A DNA stretch of 24,000 nt from Vibrio aquaticus (GCF_003970385.1 NZ_RXZH01000001.1:849300-873299); one strand, 5' to 3'; shown: positions 2 through 12,133, numbered from the stretch's first letter. The notes: generated by a model from the sequence alone, not told the origin. Program-made: numbers and translations.

Positions 2-394
2 CCGATTAAACCTAGAGTCTTACTAGCGCGGCTGCGTATGCTGCTTCGCAGACAGGCGCAGACGAGTGAGAACGAAGGTACGTCAAAAGCCCTAGTCTTT
101 GGCCAGCTCAAACTTAACCCTCAGAGAAAAATATGTGAGCTAGCAGGAAAGGAGGTCACCATGACCGACAGTGAATTTAACCTGTTGTGGATACTGGCTA
201 GCTCTCCCGATGAAGTACTTTCTCGAGAAGCCCTGACGTTTGCACTCCGGGGTATTGAGTATGATGGGCTTGACCGAACCGTTGACAACAAAATCGTTAA
301 CTTAAGAAAAAAGATCGGCGACAACTCATCGACCCCCAAACGCATCATCACAGTACGTGGGAAAGGCTACCTGTTTATACCAGATAGCTGGTAA
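2..394 (+). CDS. OmpR/PhoB-family response regulator, C-terminal part (5' end lies upstream of the window)
   Basis: The frame is open from the window edge (PIKPRVLLARLRMLLRR...) into listed ORF 38..394. Winged-helix output-domain signatures are present (LTxSEFNLLWIL, DRTVDNKIVNLRKKI, ITVRGKGY). The kinase gene starts 23 nt downstream. Confidence 0.9.
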   Translation, partial: PIKPRVLLARLRMLLRRQAQTSENEGTSKALVFGQLKLNPQRKICELAGKEVTMTDSEFNLLWILASSPDEVLSREALTFALRGIEYDGLDRTVDNKIVNLRKKIGDNSSTPKRIITVRGKGYLFIPDSW

Positions 395-417: not shown

Positions 418-1707
418 ATGCGTCGAATCTACGTTGAGTCATTTGTTGGCTTGTTTGTACTCTTTGTTCTAAGCATGTATGCGTATAAAGTCATTGTCTT
501 TGAAATGAACCCAAATTATGAGTATATGCTCGCAAGACATGAAGGTGCTGCCCTCCGCGAACTGATCACTGAAATATCCGCAGATCAAGGCCAAGAAAAA
601 GCACTGAGTATGCTAAACCGATATGCCAAACATACCGCGCATACTTTGGCAATAGTCGACTATGTTAACCTTCCTCAGCAAGTGAAAGCATACTTCGACG
701 CCCCCCATGAAGAACACCCCCATACCTATTTTGATCACGAACACCACCTGTGGATGCAAACGGCGGATCATAGTCTTTACTATCACTTACATGATGATGA
801 TTCTACAGAGCTGAGACAAGCGATATATCGAGATGACAATCTTGTTTGGGGATTTATCAGCGCAGGCTTTTTTATCTATTCAGGAGGCCTTATTTGGTTT
901 TTAAATCGAAGGGTTCGTAAGCTAGAACGCGCCACGTTAAAGTTTGCTGCGGGAGACTTAACCGCTCGAGCACCTGAAAGAAGTAAGGACCAAGTAGGCA
1001 CACTCAACAAAAGCTTTAACTATATGGCGAAGAAAATAGCCGACTTAATCACCAGTAACCGCTCACTGACGAATGCGGTCGCCCATGATTTAAGAACTCC
1101 AATATTCCGAATTCAATGGCAAGCCGAGATTCTACAAGATGAAACGTTGACCAAAGAGCAGCACAGTAAGATTGTTAGTATTATCGAAGATACAGAAGAA
1201 ATGGAGGCAATGATCAATGATCTTCTCCATTTCGCCAAATTAGAACAACCGGAAACTCAAGTCCAGAGTGAAGCCTTTAACTTGAATCAGGTGTTGTCTA
1301 CTGTCTCGAGCACAAGAAATGAAGGCTTAGATATCACCGTAAATACCCTTAAGGACGGCTATGTCATCATTGCAGACAAGGCATTAGTTCAACGCTCAGT
1401 CGACAACCTCCTATCGAATGCGAACCGATACGCTAAGTCTTCGATTCAGGTTTCTACCCACTGCTCCAAAGAGAATATCTCAATAATCGTAGAAGATGAT
1501 GGAGAGGGGATTGATCCAGAGCACTGGCCACAGATTTTCGATGCTTTTTATAGTGCCGACCCTGCACGAAACAAAGCAACATCAGGTTCGGGGTTAGGTC
1601 TTGCGATCGTTAAAATGATTGCAGAAAAGCATCAAGGTAGCGTTCAAGTGGGGAGCAGTTCCCTCGGCGGCGCCAAATTTACTCTCACTTTTCCTCGAGT
1701 GTCATAA
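418..1707 (+). CDS. Two-component sensor histidine kinase (2 TM segments, HAMP, HisKA H-box, HATPase_c)
   Basis: 429-aa ORF. H-box is AVAHDLRTPI; N-box LLSNANRYA; G-boxes EDDGEGI and GSGLGLAIV. Hydrophobic segments lie at aa ~8-28 and ~143-163. It is paired with the upstream response regulator. Confidence 0.92.
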   Translation: MRRIYVESFVGLFVLFVLSMYAYKVIVFEMNPNYEYMLARHEGAALRELITEISADQGQEKALSMLNRYAKHTAHTLAIVDYVNLPQQVKAYFDAPHEEHPHTYFDHEHHLWMQTADHSLYYHLHDDDSTELRQAIYRDDNLVWGFISAGFFIYSGGLIWFLNRRVRKLERATLKFAAGDLTARAPERSKDQVGTLNKSFNYMAKKIADLITSNRSLTNAVAHDLRTPIFRIQWQAEILQDETLTKEQHSKIVSIIEDTEEMEAMINDLLHFAKLEQPETQVQSEAFNLNQVLSTVSSTRNEGLDITVNTLKDGYVIIADKALVQRSVDNLLSNANRYAKSSIQVSTHCSKENISIIVEDDGEGIDPEHWPQIFDAFYSADPARNKATSGSGLGLAIVKMIAEKHQGSVQVGSSSLGGAKFTLTFPRVS

Positions 1708-1733
1708 AGCCCTGACATGAATTGACAATTCAT

Positions 1734-1760
1734 CGACAAACCCACGATATTGTCGTTTTT
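1734..1760 (+). terminator. Weak intrinsic terminator after the kinase gene
   Basis: CGACAA (1734-1739) pairs with TTGTCG (1750-1755), with a 10-nt loop, followed by T5 (1756-1760). The stem is short. Confidence 0.4.
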
Positions 1761-1842
1761 AGGACCCCCTGTGTCCTCAATCAGCGGAACGCCGAATTAA
1801 AAATGTCTCCCCCCTTAACAAGTAAAAAGCCCGACTCCGTAG

Positions 1843-1887
1843 AAAAAAAGATGCCTAGGCGATGAAGTCCGGGGGAGCCTAGGCATC
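1843..1887 (-). terminator. Strong minus-strand intrinsic terminator
   Basis: Perfect 11-bp stem GATGCCTAGGC (1850-1860) / GCCTAGGCATC (1877-1887) with a 16-nt loop. On the minus strand it is followed by T7 (complement of A7 at 1843-1849). The plus strand has no T-run after the hairpin. Confidence 0.75.
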
Positions 1888-2077
1888 AAACGTAACGTAA
1901 GTAAAATGTGCTTGCACATAAGGTAGAGGAAACAAACCTGCATTAAGCCAAGACTACAAGTTCAATATATACTCCCAACCTACTTAACGTTTACGTGGGC
2001 TCGGTCAAGCAAACAATGGTTGGCACAGTACCACCGCCCTTGCTTAACACAAGAATGAGGTTAGCAAGAGTGACACC
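1843..2077 (-). ncRNA. Candidate ~235-nt structured small RNA, divergent from the ibrA-like gene (5' end inferred from a predicted promoter)
   Basis: Bounded by a sigma70-like promoter (2084-2111) and the terminator at 1843-1887. There is no ORF with a ribosome-binding site inside. Several nested complementary segments are present (2039-2048/2060-2068, 1981-1996/1890-1903, 1972-1981/1921-1930, 1906-1919). Confidence 0.4.
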
Positions 2078-2083
2078 CTTGCC

Positions 2084-2111
2084 ATAATAATTGATGGTTT
2101 ATTAATGTTAA
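2084..2111 (-). promoter_or_regulatory. Predicted sigma70 promoter on the minus strand
   Basis: The minus strand reads TTAACA (2111-2106), a 16-nt spacer, then TATTAT (2089-2084). Each hexamer matches its consensus at 5/6. The context is AT-rich, so a chance match is possible. Confidence 0.4.
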
Positions 2112-2384
2112 TTCTCCGAATTTTTTGGGAGAGTAATGTCAGTAGCCAAAGTCTTACCAGGCTCTTGCGTCATCGAAATGCCTTCATTCAATTCCAGCAC
2201 TACTAGCTCAGAAAACTCAGCTCTACCCACCAAGTCTTCCATAAATTGAACATAAATTACTGTTGGAAAAAATTCTTTAGTTTAACCTCCGCACTAGGTT
2301 AGAGCGCTAGAGCGAGGCTCCTAACTTTTAGGGCTGGTTCCTAATTTTTCCTCATTCATGAGGGTGTAATACGGAGGGGTAACG

Positions 2385-3620
2385 GTGAAATCCGGTAGAA
2401 AAAAACAGCTAAAAGAGGATGTTTTCACAGCAGCAAAACGCCGTATTTCTTACATTTTTGACCACTTTGATCATCTCTATATTTCTGTTTCTGGGGGAAA
2501 AGATTCAGCCGTTTTACTCAATTTGGCTATCCGAGAAGCAGAGATACGGGGACGACTTCCCTTAGATATCTTGATTGTTGACTTTGAAGCTCAATTTGAG
2601 CAAACCGCTGCCTTTCTAGAACGTATCGTCTTAACTGGCAAGGTCAACCCTTACTGGATCTGTTTGCCGATCAGCTTAAGAAACTCAGTTTCACAGTTTC
2701 AACCTAAATGGGTGTGTTGGGATCCAAAAGAAAAGCATCGTTGGGTGAGGTCACTGCCTAACGTCAAGGGCGTGATCAGTGACGAACAGACGCTGCCATT
2801 TTTCGAGCCAGGCGTAGAGTTTGAGGATTTTGTTTGTCAATTTGCCCACTGGTATCAGCAGGCAAAAGGTACACAAATCGCCATTTTAATTGGCATTCGA
2901 GCGGATGAGTCACTCAATCGATATAAGACAATAAAAAACATCAAGAAAGCTAAGTTTAACGATCGAGCTTGGACAACCCAGATGCTAGACGATGTCTACA
3001 TGGCCTACCCCATTTATGATTGGAACACCGAGGATATTTGGATCGCAAACGGTAAGTTTAAGTGGGACTACAACCGAGTATACGATCTTATGCACCAAGC
3101 AGGAGTAAAACTCTCCCTCCAAAGGCTCTGTCAGCCGTTTGGAGATGAACAAAGAAAAAGCCTGTGGCTGTACCAGAAATTAGAACCGGATACTTGGCAG
3201 AAATTAGTAGAACGAGTGGAAGGGTGTAACTTTGGGGCCAGATACACTAAAGATCAGGGTCGAATACTCGGCTATTACCGTTTCACATTGCCCGATGGAC
3301 TGACGTATCGTCAGTACAGCAAACTATTACTCAAAACGATGCCCCCAGAGCTTGAGCTGCATTATCGACAACGCATTTTCAAGTTCCTGCAATGGTGGAG
3401 AAAAAATGGCCCACCGAGAGGGGTACATCGCATCCCAGACTTTGCAGACTCCAAGCTAGAAACGAAAAAGAAGGTTCCGAGTTGGCGACGGATATGTAGG
3501 GTATTGATTAAAAATGATTACTGGTGTCGCGGGTTATCTTTTGGTTATAACCAATCTTCCGCCCGAACCCTTCAACACCTCACGAAGCCTTTCAAAGAAG
3601 GAAAAAGTCCTGATGGATAA
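2385..3620 (+). CDS. ibrA: IbrA-like PP-loop ATPase / PAPS-reductase-fold protein with a long C-terminal extension (DUF3440-type architecture)
   Basis: 411-aa ORF with a GTG start preceded by GGAGGGG (2373-2379). The PP-loop motif SGGKDS is at aa 36-41. It is followed by an overlapping ParB-fold gene, which is the IbrA/IbrB architecture. Confidence 0.85.
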   Translation: MKSGRKKQLKEDVFTAAKRRISYIFDHFDHLYISVSGGKDSAVLLNLAIREAEIRGRLPLDILIVDFEAQFEQTAAFLERIVLTGKVNPYWICLPISLRNSVSQFQPKWVCWDPKEKHRWVRSLPNVKGVISDEQTLPFFEPGVEFEDFVCQFAHWYQQAKGTQIAILIGIRADESLNRYKTIKNIKKAKFNDRAWTTQMLDDVYMAYPIYDWNTEDIWIANGKFKWDYNRVYDLMHQAGVKLSLQRLCQPFGDEQRKSLWLYQKLEPDTWQKLVERVEGCNFGARYTKDQGRILGYYRFTLPDGLTYRQYSKLLLKTMPPELELHYRQRIFKFLQWWRKNGPPRGVHRIPDFADSKLETKKKVPSWRRICRVLIKNDYWCRGLSFGYNQSSARTLQHLTKPFKEGKSPDG

Positions 3621-4284
3621 GACCATTGAAAAAACAAAGCAATTATTTCGTGCGCTCTCTCAATCAACTCAAAGGCGGCCTAAGAAAGCCATATTTGATA
3701 ACAATGAGACGACTTCCTCCACCGACACTCTTGGCTGGATATCAACCTACAACCAATTAACTGACCTCGTACTCAAACAGTTTCCTCTTCTCCCTCCTAT
3801 TTGCTCCATCAAGCTACTGCCCCTCAATAAAATCAGCGCCAATGACTACAACCCAAATAAAATGGCAAAGCCAGAAGGTAAGCTACTGTTGCACTCTCTT
3901 GAGCAGGATGGGCTGACGCTGCCCATACTTGTCAATCTACAAAGCCACCATGACCTATACACCATCATTGATGGGTTTCACCGTTATGAACTGATAAAGA
4001 AGCACTCTCACCTACAAACAGTCAAAGGCTATATCCCCGCGATTGTCCTATCCAAATCCAAAGGCGAAGCCATGTCGTCCTCAATAAGGCACAACATCGC
4101 TAGAGGTGTCCACCAAGTCGAATTGACCGCTAATATGGTCATCGCACTCAAGCAAATGAATTGGAGCAATGAAGAAATAGGGAGAGAACTAGGGATGGAT
4201 AAAGATGAAGTTCTAAGAATGCAGCAAATCACAGGATTAGCCGACGCTTTTAAAGATCAGGACTTTTCAACCGCCTGGGAATAA
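3613..4284 (+). CDS. ibrB: IbrB-like ParB/sulfiredoxin-fold protein with an HTH-like C-terminal segment
   Basis: The ATG at 3613 lies inside the last codons of the upstream gene (8-nt overlap). The ParB-fold motif YTIIDGFHRYE is present. The listed ORF start at 3514 would overlap the upstream gene by 107 nt, so I rejected it. Confidence 0.8.
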   Translation: MDKTIEKTKQLFRALSQSTQRRPKKAIFDNNETTSSTDTLGWISTYNQLTDLVLKQFPLLPPICSIKLLPLNKISANDYNPNKMAKPEGKLLLHSLEQDGLTLPILVNLQSHHDLYTIIDGFHRYELIKKHSHLQTVKGYIPAIVLSKSKGEAMSSSIRHNIARGVHQVELTANMVIALKQMNWSNEEIGRELGMDKDEVLRMQQITGLADAFKDQDFSTAWE

Positions 4285-4430
4285 CGCCTCAAATACTGTT
4301 TATTATTTACTCATTAATAACATTACATCTCGTATTTCGAACGACTAAATTCTCTTGGCGTTTAACGCTTACCACGTACTCAAATGTACTTACTTAAAAC
4401 TTGGCGTATTTTATTGCTAGGAGAAATTTC

Positions 4431-5699
4431 ATGAACTTATCCTCTGATACTACTCTAAATCAGACTAAACCTTCATTGTGCAGCGGGGCCAGTATTGTTG
4501 CCTGCGTTTGTATTGGTGCAGGAATGCTTGGCCTTCCTACCGCAGGTGCTGGCTCTTGGACGATATGGTCTTCACTGACATTGATTGTGACCATGCTCAT
4601 TATGACCGCAAGTGGCTGCTTACTGTTAGAAAGCTTTAAGTCTTACCCATTTCGCTCTTCTTTTAGCACCGTGACACGCGATTTGTTGGGCCCGAGAATT
4701 GCCACAGTAAACAACTTAGCTGTCTATTTTGTCGGTGCGATTCTACTTTACGCCTACACCACCTCATCGGGGCTGATTATTGAGCAATACACCTCAGTTA
4801 ATGCCTCGACTGGCTCGATCTTTTTTGTGTTGTTGTTCTCCGCTTTCGTCTGGCACTCAACCCAAGCTGTTAGTAAGATTTCAATCGTGCTGTTACTCTT
4901 TATGTCGTTCAGCTTTATCTTCTCAATTCTAGGGCTGCTGACGTCGCTAGACCCAATCAATCTATTTGGCGACTTTCAGATGTCAAACAGCGTCTATGTA
5001 TTTTCTTTGTTACCCATCGCCCTGACTTCTTTCGGATTTCACCATACTGTTTCTTCTTTAAGGGACTACTATGTGGATGAGTTTCGAGCAGAAAAAGCGA
5101 TGGTGTTAGGTACTGGGTTAGCGCTGTTCGTCTACTTAATCTGGCAAATCAGCGTTTATGGTAATCTCACTCGCAGCAGCTTCATTGAAGTCAGGGAGCT
5201 TGGAGGCAATGTCGATGCATTAATGTCTCTCATGACAAATGGCTTAAAGAAAGAAACCCTGTCGACGATCTTAAATGCATTCTCTTCTGCCGCTATTCTG
5301 TCGAGCTTTATCGGAGTGGGCTTGGGGGTATTTGACTTTCTTACCGATGCTTTTCAATTCGAGAATAACCGTTCAGGGCGATTCAAAGCATGGTTGGTCA
5401 CCTTTCTTCCTCCGTTGCTCTTTTCCTATTTTCTCCCGTTCGGTTTTCTAGCGACAATTGGCTACGCCTCTCTCTTTGCTGCTATTTGGGCGTGTATCAT
5501 TCCAGCTCTATTAGTAAAAAAAGTTCGCGAAGAGGAATCAAATAATACGCTCGAGCCCTGCTCTACCTCTTGGAAACCCAGCAGCTATACCACACCTGGC
5601 GGTGATTTAACGCTCATCGCGGTGTTTTTATTTGGCATCATCATTATAGTAATCAGAATCCTAGAACCTCTGGGTTTCGTTCCCAATTTTGGTCGATAG
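4431..5699 (+). CDS. Aromatic amino acid permease of the Mtr/TnaB/TyrP (HAAAP) family, probably a tryptophan permease
   Basis: Polytopic membrane protein with the N-terminal IGAGMLGLP motif. AGGAG (4419-4423) lies 7 nt before ATG 4431, whereas the listed TTG at 4401 has no ribosome-binding site. It sits immediately upstream of tnaA. Confidence 0.85.
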   Translation: MNLSSDTTLNQTKPSLCSGASIVACVCIGAGMLGLPTAGAGSWTIWSSLTLIVTMLIMTASGCLLLESFKSYPFRSSFSTVTRDLLGPRIATVNNLAVYFVGAILLYAYTTSSGLIIEQYTSVNASTGSIFFVLLFSAFVWHSTQAVSKISIVLLLFMSFSFIFSILGLLTSLDPINLFGDFQMSNSVYVFSLLPIALTSFGFHHTVSSLRDYYVDEFRAEKAMVLGTGLALFVYLIWQISVYGNLTRSSFIEVRELGGNVDALMSLMTNGLKKETLSTILNAFSSAAILSSFIGVGLGVFDFLTDAFQFENNRSGRFKAWLVTFLPPLLFSYFLPFGFLATIGYASLFAAIWACIIPALLVKKVREEESNNTLEPCSTSWKPSSYTTPGGDLTLIAVFLFGIIIIVIRILEPLGFVPNFGR

Positions 5700-5729
5700 T
5701 CCTCACTTACCCCTCAAAAACATTGGCCT

Positions 5730-5766
5730 CTTATTGAATTAATTATACATATATTAATTCAATAAG
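5730..5766. repeat. AT-rich perfect inverted repeat between the permease gene and tnaA
   Basis: CTTATTGAATTAAT (5730-5743) and ATTAATTCAATAAG (5753-5766) are perfect 14-bp arms with a 9-nt spacer. No T-run follows on either strand. Confidence 0.6.
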
Positions 5767-5853
5767 ATCTCCGCCAGTGTTCTCCTAATAAGCCACTGCA
5801 CACATATTGCATTGGGTCTACCTTAAAGAAAACAATTAGAAAAGGAAACGCAA

Positions 5854-7323
5854 ATGGAAAGTTCGAATAATGCTTTTTCGCAGAATAATCAGGCAAAGGA
5901 TTTAAGCTCTGCTATGAGGTATATCGCCGAACCATATAGGATCAGAGTAATCGAACCGATTGGCCAAACGACCCGCTCGCAAAGGGAAGAGGCGCTGGCA
6001 AAGGTGGGATTTAATCCTTTTCTTCTGCACAGCAAAGATGTATTCATTGACTTACTTACGGACAGCGGTACTGGCGCAGTAACGCAATCTATGCAAGCTG
6101 CCATGTTGATGGGAGATGAAGCTTACAGTGGCAGCCGCAGTTACTTTGGTTTGAAAGAGGCGGTGGAAGACATTTTCGGCTATCAAACCACTATTCCAAC
6201 ACACCAAGGAAGAGGAGCGGAACAGCTGTATGTACCAAGTTTGATCAAGAAGCGAGAACGTGAAAAAGGCTTGTCCAGAGACAAAATGACGGTCATATCC
6301 AATTTCTTCTTCGATACAACGCAAGGACACTCGCAATGGCACGGATGCAAAATTGTTAATGTCCCTGTTCCAGCTGCATTTGATACTAAGGTCAAAGCCG
6401 ACTTCAAAGGGAATTTTGACCTCGACTTGCTTGAAAAGACAATTGAAGACATTGGCCCTAAACATATCCCATATATTGTCAGCACCATTACGTGTAACTC
6501 CGCTGGTGGTCAACCGGTCTCTGTGACCAACTTGAAAGAGGTGTATCGAATCGCTAAGCAATACGATATTCCCGTAGTGATGGACTGCGCTCGATTTGCT
6601 GAGAATGCTTACTTTGTTAAACAACGTGAACCTGGATTCAGCCATATGAGCATTGAAGAGATCACTCACCTTTCGTTTCAATATGCCGATGTCTTGGCGA
6701 TGTCTGCGAAAAAAGACGCCATGGTGCCAATCGGTGGACTGCTCGCTTTTAAAGACGACTCCTTAGATGATGTGTACCAAGAATGTCGAACATTGTGTGT
6801 ACTCCTAGAAGGTTTCCCGACCTACGGCGGACTTGAAGGAGGGGCAATGGAACGATTGGCCGTCGGGCTCTATGAAGCGATGAGAGAAGAGTGGCTTGAA
6901 TCTCGTATCGGGCAAATTCAGTATCTCGTCGATGGACTCGAAGCCATTGGGGTGCAATGCCAACAAGCAGGTGGCCACGCGGTCTTTATTGATGCGGGTG
7001 CAATACTGCCTCATATCCCGAAAGATCAATTCCCGGGTCATGTGTTAGCGTGTGAATTGTATCGTGTCGCGGGGATCCGCAGTGCGGAAATCGGTTCACT
7101 TTTGATTGGGCGCGATCCATCGAGTGGTGTCCAGCTACCCGCTCCTGCAGAGCTGTTGCGTTTAGCGATACCTAGAGCAACTTATACTCAAGCCCATCTT
7201 GACTACGTCATTGCAGCCTTTCAGCTAGTAATGAATGGGTGTCAAAACCTCAAAGGTTTGACGTTCACCTACGAACCACCGGTGTTAAGACACTTCAATG
7301 CACAATTTGTCGAAGTGGCTTGA
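5854..7323 (+). CDS. tnaA: Tryptophanase (tryptophan indole-lyase, PLP-dependent beta-eliminating lyase)
   Basis: Long blocks are collinear with my recollection of E. coli TnaA: [97 protein letters not shown] and KGLTFTYEP. Confidence 0.95.
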
Positions 7324-11243: not shown

Positions 11244-11453
11244 TTATGCAACACCCATTACTCGTTTATATTTATCTACAGAGTTTAAAAATGAAGCCTT
11301 TTCTTCTTCATCGATAATCTTAGCGGCCTCTTGATCAATTTCATCAGGGCCTGCTTTGGCTTCACGCAATTTCCAAACCAAAAAAGAAGCTTGCTTATCA
11401 AGTTCAATCTTGTTTTTTTCACTCGCTGGAAGCGTTGATAGGTTGATCGACAT
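11244..11453 (-). CDS. Small acidic hypothetical protein (69 aa from the ATG; the listed ORF uses an upstream TTG)
   Basis: The ORF has helical, charged composition (KIIDEEEKASFLNSVDKYKR). It is a separate unit downstream of the terminator at 11549-11588. No family was recognised. Confidence 0.5.
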   Translation of the reverse strand: MSINLSTLPASEKNKIELDKQASFLVWKLREAKAGPDEIDQEAAKIIDEEEKASFLNSVDKYKRVMGVA

Positions 11454-11548
11454 ACTCAGGCTCAAATCTGTAAAAATATGGCTTGGGAATATACCACACC
11501 GCGAGGAAATGTAGACAGGGAAACCTTGCTATAGAGCCCGATTCGATC

Positions 11549-11588
11549 AAAAAAAGTAAAAATAAAGGGCGGCACTCCTGTGCCCCCC
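11549..11588 (-). terminator. Minus-strand intrinsic terminator after the 65-aa gene
   Basis: On the minus strand, GGGGGGCAC-AGGA-GTGCCGCCC pairs at 8 of 9 positions and is followed by TTTATTTTTACTTTTTTT. Confidence 0.7.
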
Positions 11589-11615
11589 TTATGGAGTCGT
11601 TGTTGTTGCAGAAAA

Positions 11616-11813
11616 TTAGTGAAGTAAACCGAGTTCTTTCGCTTCTTCAATGCTTAACCCGCTTTCACGTATTTCTCTTAAGGCTTCAATACGGCGACGT
11701 GCTTCCACCGATTTAGAACTCTTAGTAGGCGCTTGTGATTCAACTTCTTCCGTGAAGTCCCACTTACCTGCAATCTTACTCATTTCATCATGGTCAATAG
11801 AATTAATGGACAT
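11616..11813 (-). CDS. Small hypothetical protein (65 aa) with an acidic N-terminus and an RRRIEALREIRE basic helix
   Basis: GGAGG (complement of 11819-11823) lies 5 nt before ATG 11813 (MSINSIDHDE...). It has its own terminator. The listed start at 11834 has no ribosome-binding site. Confidence 0.65.
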   Translation of the reverse strand: MSINSIDHDEMSKIAGKWDFTEEVESQAPTKSSKSVEARRRIEALREIRESGLSIEEAKELGLLH

Positions 11814-12133
11814 AAAAACCTCCGAACAAACCATGCAAGGGACGAGGTAATCTGTAGCAAAACTCTTCCCCTCTTGTTAAGAATTTTTGGCCCAGAATGT
11901 GATACTGCTAATAGTTCAGAAAGTCTTACTGTTTTTTGTATAAATAAGTTTTGCGTAGCCCCAAAGTGCGAAGTACATTTAAGAGATTGCCCCCGAATAA
12001 ATGAGCGAGATCGCCGTCTCATTTTTGCCCCCTGAGTCGCCTCTTCCATTGCGACATTTACATTACAAACCACTCATTTCTTCGACTGACTTCACCCTTT
12101 TGCTCGCTACTTCTTTTCTCTTTCAAAATAACA

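Follow-up and report, generated by a model that had tools for sequence, protein, structure and literature searches.

The spacer upstream of an ibrA-like gene in Vibrio aquaticus has the appearance of a non-coding transcription unit on the minus strand, closed by an intrinsic-terminator hairpin. It is plausibly a lineage-specific sRNA gene or a divergent by-product transcript and not, as an earlier reading made from the sequence alone (the sequence-only reading) had proposed, a structured partner RNA of the adjacent IbrAB pair.

The window, by which we mean the whole 24-kb stretch of DNA that was analyzed, carries the spacer between a histidine kinase gene and ibrA (Table 1). Three loci are closest to it, L081, L082 and L083, and these share the gene order RR-HK-MipA-X-ibrA-ibrB-permease-tryptophanase, in which X is a 350-425-aa lipoprotein with an LxGC lipobox and weak matches to the Lcl_C and InvE adhesion domains. 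In this Vibrio group X (350-390 aa in L081-L083) adjoins ibrAB on the upstream side, and in L081, L082, L083 and L087 the kinase gene is separated from ibrA by mipA and X. Positions 1-1754 of the window align with L081 1485-3238 and positions 1843-1891 with L081 5391-5438; as the match runs to 1754 and resumes at 1843, mipA and X have been lost from the window. No protein-level remnant of either gene was found in the gap by tblastn or blastn-short, and a degraded mipA or X pseudogene was ruled out as the source of the spacer on these searches, in which matches were at chance level. An origin from a mobile element, phage or plasmid was also ruled out, as blastn gave no match in plasmid and phage collections. 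The nearest homologue of the window's IbrA is 83% identical to it, and IbrA homologues are otherwise very widespread.

Table 1. Coordinates of genes and sequence elements in the window, and of gene X in related loci (positions of those loci)
Feature	Position	Strand	Remarks
OmpR-type response regulator gene, 3' part	38-394	+	
Histidine kinase gene	418-1707	+	HAMP/HisKA/HATPase
Gap between kinase gene and ibrA	1708-2384		677 bp
Junction left by loss of mipA and X	1755-1842	none	88 nt; ~2.15 kb in relatives (L081 3238-5391)
U7 tract directly 3' of hairpin	1843-1849	-	A7 on plus strand; read directly
Intrinsic-terminator hairpin	1850-1887	-	11-bp perfect stem, 16-nt loop CUCCCCCGGACUUCAU
Predicted non-coding RNA body	1888-2077	-	~190 nt; ends inferred from promoter-like site and terminator
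Rightward promoter-like site	2061-2088	+	TTAGCA, 16 nt, TGcCATAAT; predicted start ~2095
Leftward promoter-like site	2084-2111	-	TTAACA (2111-2106), 16 nt, TATTAT (2089-2084); predicted start G 2077
Conserved block upstream of ibrA, outside proposed RNA	2229-2293	none	65 bp
ibrA-like gene	2385-3620	+	PAPS_reduct + DUF3440
ibrB-like gene	3514-4284	+	ParB_N
Trp/Tyr permease gene	4401-5699	+	
Tryptophanase gene	5854-7323	+	
Gene X, L081	4333-5391		
Gene X, L082	4359-5537		
Gene X, L083	4611-5666		
Gene X, L001	2327-3604		
Gene X, L005	2356-3534		
Gene X, L085	1356-2624		

Two observations concern the genes downstream of the spacer. Read from its first ATG, the ibrB ORF overlaps ibrA by 107 nt (window 3514-3620), and the ibrB gene calls of relatives begin at or just past the ibrA stop codon. 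In many Vibrio loci (window 2385-7323; L001-L008, L017 and L084-L086) the order ibrA-ibrB-Trp/Tyr permease is repeated, often with tryptophanase next in line, and the order ibrA-ibrB-permease is also found on plasmids (L004 and L006). This recurring gene order suggests that IbrAB may be functionally linked to tryptophan or indole metabolism.

The sequence-only reading had reported a perfect 11-bp stem followed by T7, and this element is present. On the minus strand the stem arms GATGCCTAGGC and GCCTAGGCATC (1887-1877 and 1860-1850) pair throughout, with seven G-C pairs among the 11, and T7 follows at 1849-1843. The hairpin with its U-run has an energy of -19.7 kcal/mol, a value reached in none of 150 dinucleotide shuffles of the gap; -15 kcal/mol was reached in one of the 150. 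The claim of orientation specificity also held, as the U7 tract lies on the minus strand only and the plus-strand continuation past the hairpin, AAACGTAACG, has no T-run. The hairpin sequence is present as a single copy in the 24-kb window and is not a repeat. A consensus terminator scan reported no terminators; it allows loops of up to 8 nt, and so misses this hairpin with its loop of 16 nt. That loop falls outside the 3-8 nt typical of terminators, a short loop being a usual feature and not a strict requirement. All other strong terminators in the window follow ORFs, which makes the hairpin at 1850-1887 the only strong one without an ORF in front of it. A second apparent orphan (11565-11590) was rejected, since a 72-aa ORF (11616-11834, minus strand) precedes it. 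The apparent 1-kb gap around that terminator contains two small minus-strand ORFs, the one just mentioned and another of 73 aa (11244-11465). Among the features noted from the sequence alone, the terminator at 1850-1887 is the only one that exceeds chance.

A minus-oriented hairpin with a U-run occupies the same place in eight related loci (L081, L087, L082, L083, L001, L005, L084 and L085), either at the stop codon of X or within ~85 nt of it. L083 is from V. brasiliensis, L001 from V. europaeus and L084 from a V. neptunius-like species, while L087, a metagenome contig, belongs to the species of L081; together, the X-group loci represent six diverged lineages. In all eight, the plus strand reads X, A-run, GC hairpin, and the minus strand reads hairpin followed by 6-11 U; a plus-strand T-run beside the hairpin is absent from every one, with A-runs in its stead. 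The stems exist in at least five versions, GGUGCCUAGGC, UGGGGUG, CGGGGGC, UGGGGUGGC and UGGGGUGA, each of them perfectly paired. Loops are 4-6 nt long in six of the relatives (L082, L083, L001, L005, L084 and L085) and large in the window and L081. The window hairpin (1843-1891) is 84% identical, loop included, to its L081 counterpart (5391-5438), which lies directly past the X stop codon, and a single A-U to G-C double change distinguishes the two stems. The terminator region of L001 is 79% identical to that of L085, versus 25-57% for the remaining spacer. No closer relatives of the window were found, and the databases searched yielded no intermediates for the other lineages.

These comparisons establish the terminator, its orientation and its upkeep across relatives. 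An orphan terminator that opposes two co-directional genes and remains intact despite such divergence argues that leftward transcription is real and that stopping it matters. Leftward transcription from the region upstream of ibrA is thus probably real and selected for. The hairpin might instead be a relic, left behind as the terminator of a minus-strand gene since lost or as a 3' stabilizer of the X mRNA, with no transcription into it at present. The 2.15-kb deletion directly beside the hairpin in the window would suit such an origin, but perfect pairing, changed stems and an intact U-run are maintained in six diverged lineages while the flanking spacer has been randomized. A plus-strand mRNA stabilizer would also leave the conserved plus-strand A-run unexplained, and a remnant of a minus-strand gene was looked for and none was found. 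We consider a relic highly improbable.

The X-ibrA spacer itself is an indel hot spot, with two insertions that separate L087 from L081 within one species: one of 333 bp with an ORF fragment (L087 8059-8391; L081 5834/5835) and one of 26 bp (L087 ~7840; L081 ~5656). The motif GGTTAG, which was chosen post hoc, is present in eight copies in X-ibrA spacers versus 1.4 expected, a count not reached in any of 500 shuffles. The sites are at 2059 and 2297 in the window, at 5549, 5772, 5936 and 5580 (minus strand) in L081, at 5643 in L082 and at 5763 in L083; all eight thus fall within the four RR-HK-MipA-type loci, and all but one are plus-strand sites. The motif could serve as one arm of a hairpin or bind a protein.

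The presence of ibrAB was confirmed in 213 stretches, and 80 loci, all from other genomes, were kept for comparison. Neither blastn (word size 7) nor nhmmer detected spacer similarity at these 80 loci. Of the 24 loci outside the X group whose upstream gap is at least 250 nt, three have a minus-oriented terminator-like hairpin; among the enterobacterial ibrA loci (L060-L079) such a hairpin was found only in L067 and L073, and no similar spacer was found in any of them. A terminator at the corresponding position was confined to the eight loci of the X-ibrA Vibrio group. With the terminator in eight X-group loci and no spacer similarity at the 80, the element is bound to a lineage and not to ibrAB. 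As far as the compared sequences go, it tracks a narrow Vibrio lineage in which X precedes ibrA, and not ibrAB as such.

This distribution bears on the proposal that a structured RNA works with, or regulates, the IbrA/IbrB pair within its module. The predicted RNA does adjoin ibrA in divergent orientation, and its positional counterparts are found in eight loci that all have ibrAB. However, ibrAB is widespread without this spacer, and the minus-strand terminator is rare among long-gap loci outside the X group; moreover, there is no excess folding energy, no significant covariation and no Rfam family. The sequence-only reading had itself named conservation and covariation of the spacers upstream of ibrA-like genes as the check on a regulator or RNA partner of the two-gene module. 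The spacers are not conserved and show no significant covariation, and so the partner idea fails by its own measure. By distribution, this reading appears to be largely refuted, and we give it almost no credence. Literature searches for IbrAB and DUF3440 yielded nothing on an associated RNA.

The existence of the RNA, its start site and its size are inferred, as is any regulatory activity, and its ends are placed only by the promoter-like site and the terminator; as predicted, the whole RNA would measure ~232-235 nt, from 2077 to ~1845. The lack of coding potential is established. As had been noted earlier, the gap contains no ORF of at least 60 aa, the largest being 47 aa (plus strand, 1722-1865) and 44 aa (minus strand, 2108-2242), and Pfam gave no match to five small gap ORFs. 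A small protein gene was considered and rejected: the reading frame of a 42-aa minus-strand ORF crosses the terminator, a Shine-Dalgarno sequence is missing from the 44-aa ORF, and in a stretch conserved in L081, CTAGTAGTG, the frames differ between the window and L081. No conserved or recognizable ORF was found in front of the terminator. Searches for tRNA and tmRNA were negative. That the sequence-only reading did not recognize it as any named Vibrio sRNA agrees with an Rfam scan, which matched no RNA family: Rfam 15 gave no matches in the whole window at the gathering threshold, and at a permissive threshold the best matches in 1700-2400 were to unrelated eukaryotic families (at most 18.5 bits, E at least 0.6).

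Folding of the RNA body provided no sign of a structured RNA. On the minus strand, 1888-2077 has a predicted energy of -49.8 kcal/mol versus -47.2 +/- 4.1 kcal/mol in shuffles (z -0.63), with 47 of 200 shuffles folding as well; the plus strand of the body gave z -0.58. The longer segment 1836-2080 (245 nt) gave z -2.0, a value due to the terminator that it includes. Across the eight positional counterparts, body z-scores ranged from +0.62 to -2.09. The claim of a structured RNA was thus not supported by folding energy. As for the nested complementarity that had been described within the RNA, the pairings exist and several are part of the minimum free energy fold, but they do not go beyond chance given the body z-score.

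The spacer at 1892-2228, which includes the body, is at random level relative to L081, the nearest relative (identity 0.29 versus 0.26 +/- 0.055 for shuffles), with ibrA being 70-82% identical between the same two loci. Only the hairpin and a 65-bp block near ibrA stand out in the gap between the window and L081, and no conserved block was found within the body in that comparison. Between lineages, the terminator alone is recognizable, and cross-lineage alignment is unreliable outside of it. In all eight relatives the body is moderately GC-rich, 110-235 nt long and located behind an AT-rich block. UUUCC is present in seven of the eight bodies, although this motif was picked post hoc.

Among L005, L084 and L085, identity is 60-97% over the 170-200 nt that precede the terminator. 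Between L005 and L085 this stretch is 83-97% identical, versus 74-88% for the 3' end of X and 62-79% for the ibrA-proximal spacer; between L084 and L085 it is 60-78% identical, versus 45-71% for the ibrA-proximal spacer. An 8-nt indel within the conserved body sets L084 apart from L005 and L085, which rules out a shared reading frame. RNAalifold predicted a 17-bp helix in these three sequences that survives five of six substitutions and that is rich in G-U pairs, making it stable on the minus strand only. Covariation in this internal helix amounts to one double change, matched by 166 of 500 shuffles in an alignment limited to three alignable sequences. The evidence for constraint on the RNA body is mixed.

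The promoter-like TTAACA-16-TATTAT reported on the minus strand by the sequence-only reading is present, scoring 10/12; it is plausible as a promoter, on weak evidence. Its rightward-facing counterpart scores 9/12, has an extended -10 TG and implies an ibrA leader of 290 nt. The two -10 hexamers, CATAAT on the plus strand (2083-2088) and TATTAT on the minus strand (2089-2084), lie 1 nt out of register, which pairs -7T and -11A reciprocally and puts 18 bp between the predicted starts at 2095 and 2077. PMC10268837, in its summary of Warman et al. 2021, describes this geometry, with coinciding -7T/-11A and starts 18 bp apart, as the commonest bacterial bidirectional promoter type. On its sequence, the leftward site is thus half of a putative symmetric bidirectional sigma-70 site, the other half of which would face ibrA. 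A promoter scan of 1400-2700 returned six promoter-like matches versus 1.9 expected. No aligned minus-strand promoter scoring at least 9/12 was found in the relatives; a relaxed scan gave only 8/12 matches in the AT-rich block, none of them clearly aligned, which would give RNAs of ~165-235 nt. That AT-rich block precedes the body in all eight relatives.

Nearer to ibrA, the 65-bp block (2229-2293) is 82% identical to L081 5867-5928 and L087 8425-8485, with the flanking spacer at random level, and it contains ACAT-N6-ATGT and GTTTAACCTCC. This block is probably the ibrA control region, either a promoter or an operator. Folding of the plus strand over 2095-2400, the putative ibrA leader, gave no sign of structure (z -0.12). 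The leader would hold a 37-aa upstream ORF (2136-2249, plus strand) with GGGAG 4-5 nt before its ATG; this ORF has no Pfam match and is not conserved in L081. Four short GGTTAG/CCTAAC-type segments at 2299-2349 (plus strand) could pair alternately, the last pair, TTAGG/CCTAA with T5, forming a weak attenuator-like hairpin (-10.3 kcal/mol) 44 nt before ibrA. This arrangement is also not conserved in L081.

The symmetric promoter raises the possibility that the RNA is a by-product without function, arising from an ibrA promoter that fires both ways, with selection acting only on the insulating terminator. The 1-nt offset of the -10 hexamers is the canonical bidirectional geometry (PMC10268837), conservation between lineages is limited to the terminator, and the body is unstructured and has no conserved seed. 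The spacer also tolerates large indels, as in the 333-bp and 26-bp insertions of L087 relative to L081. Against this, the ibrA-proximal spacer of L005, L084 and L085 is less conserved than the body, which between L005 and L085 also surpasses the 3' end of X. In addition, the symmetric promoter was not seen at an aligned position in relatives, and the true ibrA promoter may lie in the 2229-2293 block. We regard a functionless by-product as rather unlikely, though as an alternative to be taken seriously.

It has also been considered that the RNA acts in cis as an antisense RNA, pairing perfectly with plus-strand transcripts that cross the spacer and modulating ibrAB expression through RNase III cleavage or transcriptional interference. 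The proposed partners are X-ibrAB read-through transcripts in the relatives and, in the window, a long ibrA leader or read-through from the kinase gene. X-group loci have no plus-strand terminator between X or the kinase gene and ibrA, with the one exception of the window's weak hairpin 44 nt before ibrA, and several promoter-like sites on the plus strand are located within the RNA region or on its left side. Such pairing would not need sequence conservation, in keeping with the rapid divergence of the body. If ibrA transcription starts at ~2095 or in the 2229-2293 block, however, the ibrA transcript and the RNA would not overlap, and an antisense role in cis appears improbable to us.

We tentatively favor, at somewhat less than an even chance, a fast-evolving non-coding RNA gene of ~235 nt that shares a bidirectional promoter with ibrAB and ends at a conserved, shielding terminator. 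RNA polymerase would start at the AT-rich site at 2084-2111, one face of a bidirectional sigma-70 promoter whose other face would direct transcription into ibrAB. Leftward transcription would proceed for ~235 nt and be released at the hairpin at 1850-1887 and its U7. The product would be a fast-evolving sRNA with the 3' module customary among base-pairing sRNAs, in which a U/A-rich stretch precedes a GC hairpin and a long U tail. If active, it would most likely base-pair, either in trans or on plus-strand transcripts crossing the spacer. The terminator would block an antisense run into the convergent gene, which is X in the relatives and the histidine kinase gene in the window. A more specific proposal is that the spacers form a positionally orthologous sRNA family in which antisense or anti-Shine-Dalgarno pairing couples or uncouples expression of X and IbrAB. 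The candidate does carry a CU-rich anti-Shine-Dalgarno stretch, UUUCCUCU (1932-1925), and predicted duplexes with the translation-initiation regions of X and ibrA were no better than shuffles (z -1.8 to +1.6). We rate this coupling as doubtful at best.

Hfq-type base-pairing sRNA genes are well known in the gamma-proteobacteria, for instance those of the Vibrio Qrr, VrrA and MicX class. Like these genes, the candidate is intergenic, has a putative sigma-70-like promoter, would fall in the 150-250 nt length range and has no ORF. Its 3' end, consisting of the U/A-rich stretch UUUUACUUACGUUACGUUU, a GC hairpin and U7, also resembles theirs, a layout that is the same in all eight counterparts, as does rapid sequence turnover outside of the terminator. 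Unlike them, it has no Rfam homology, no conserved seed or target was found, and its terminator has an unusually large loop (16 nt), both in the window and in L081. The terminator is similar to canonical Rho-independent terminators in its GC-rich perfect stem, immediate U7, orientation specificity and high stability, but it follows no gene in the window and opposes two co-directional plus-strand genes. Beyond this generic terminator module, the candidate has none of the defining features of named RNA families.

With the transcripts of bidirectional promoters (Warman et al. 2021), as they are described in PMC10268837, the window shares opposed -10 hexamers in which -7T and -11A coincide, together with predicted starts 18 bp apart that would lead to a gene in one direction and a non-coding RNA in the other. 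It differs from them, as described there, in that a dedicated intrinsic terminator, maintained in evolution, would close its non-coding arm, and in that the symmetric arrangement is not visibly conserved in its relatives. Taken from sequence, the predicted anatomy matches that of ordinary Hfq-type sRNA genes and of divergent promoter transcripts.

The surrounding genes offer a further comparison. In E. coli, IbrA and IbrB reportedly activate eib surface-protein genes. The window has the same domain pair as the E. coli IbrAB island, PAPS_reduct+DUF3440 and ParB_N, and the surface lipoprotein gene X directly upstream of ibrAB in relatives recalls the link between IbrAB and Eib. We know of no RNA element described for the E. 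coli island.

An orphan terminator that is intact and correctly oriented amid randomized surroundings is good evidence of non-coding transcription that would otherwise be invisible, while it provides no evidence for a structured or module-specific RNA. This methodological point is sturdier than the sRNA claim, and the RNA itself is an ordinary candidate sRNA. Should the RNA prove real, a Vibrio sRNA specific to this lineage and not described before would lie at the control region of ibrAB, a widespread gene pair, and would offer a handle on the regulation of that island. Were the coupling of X and IbrAB to prove true, it would add an RNA layer of control to an IbrAB island.
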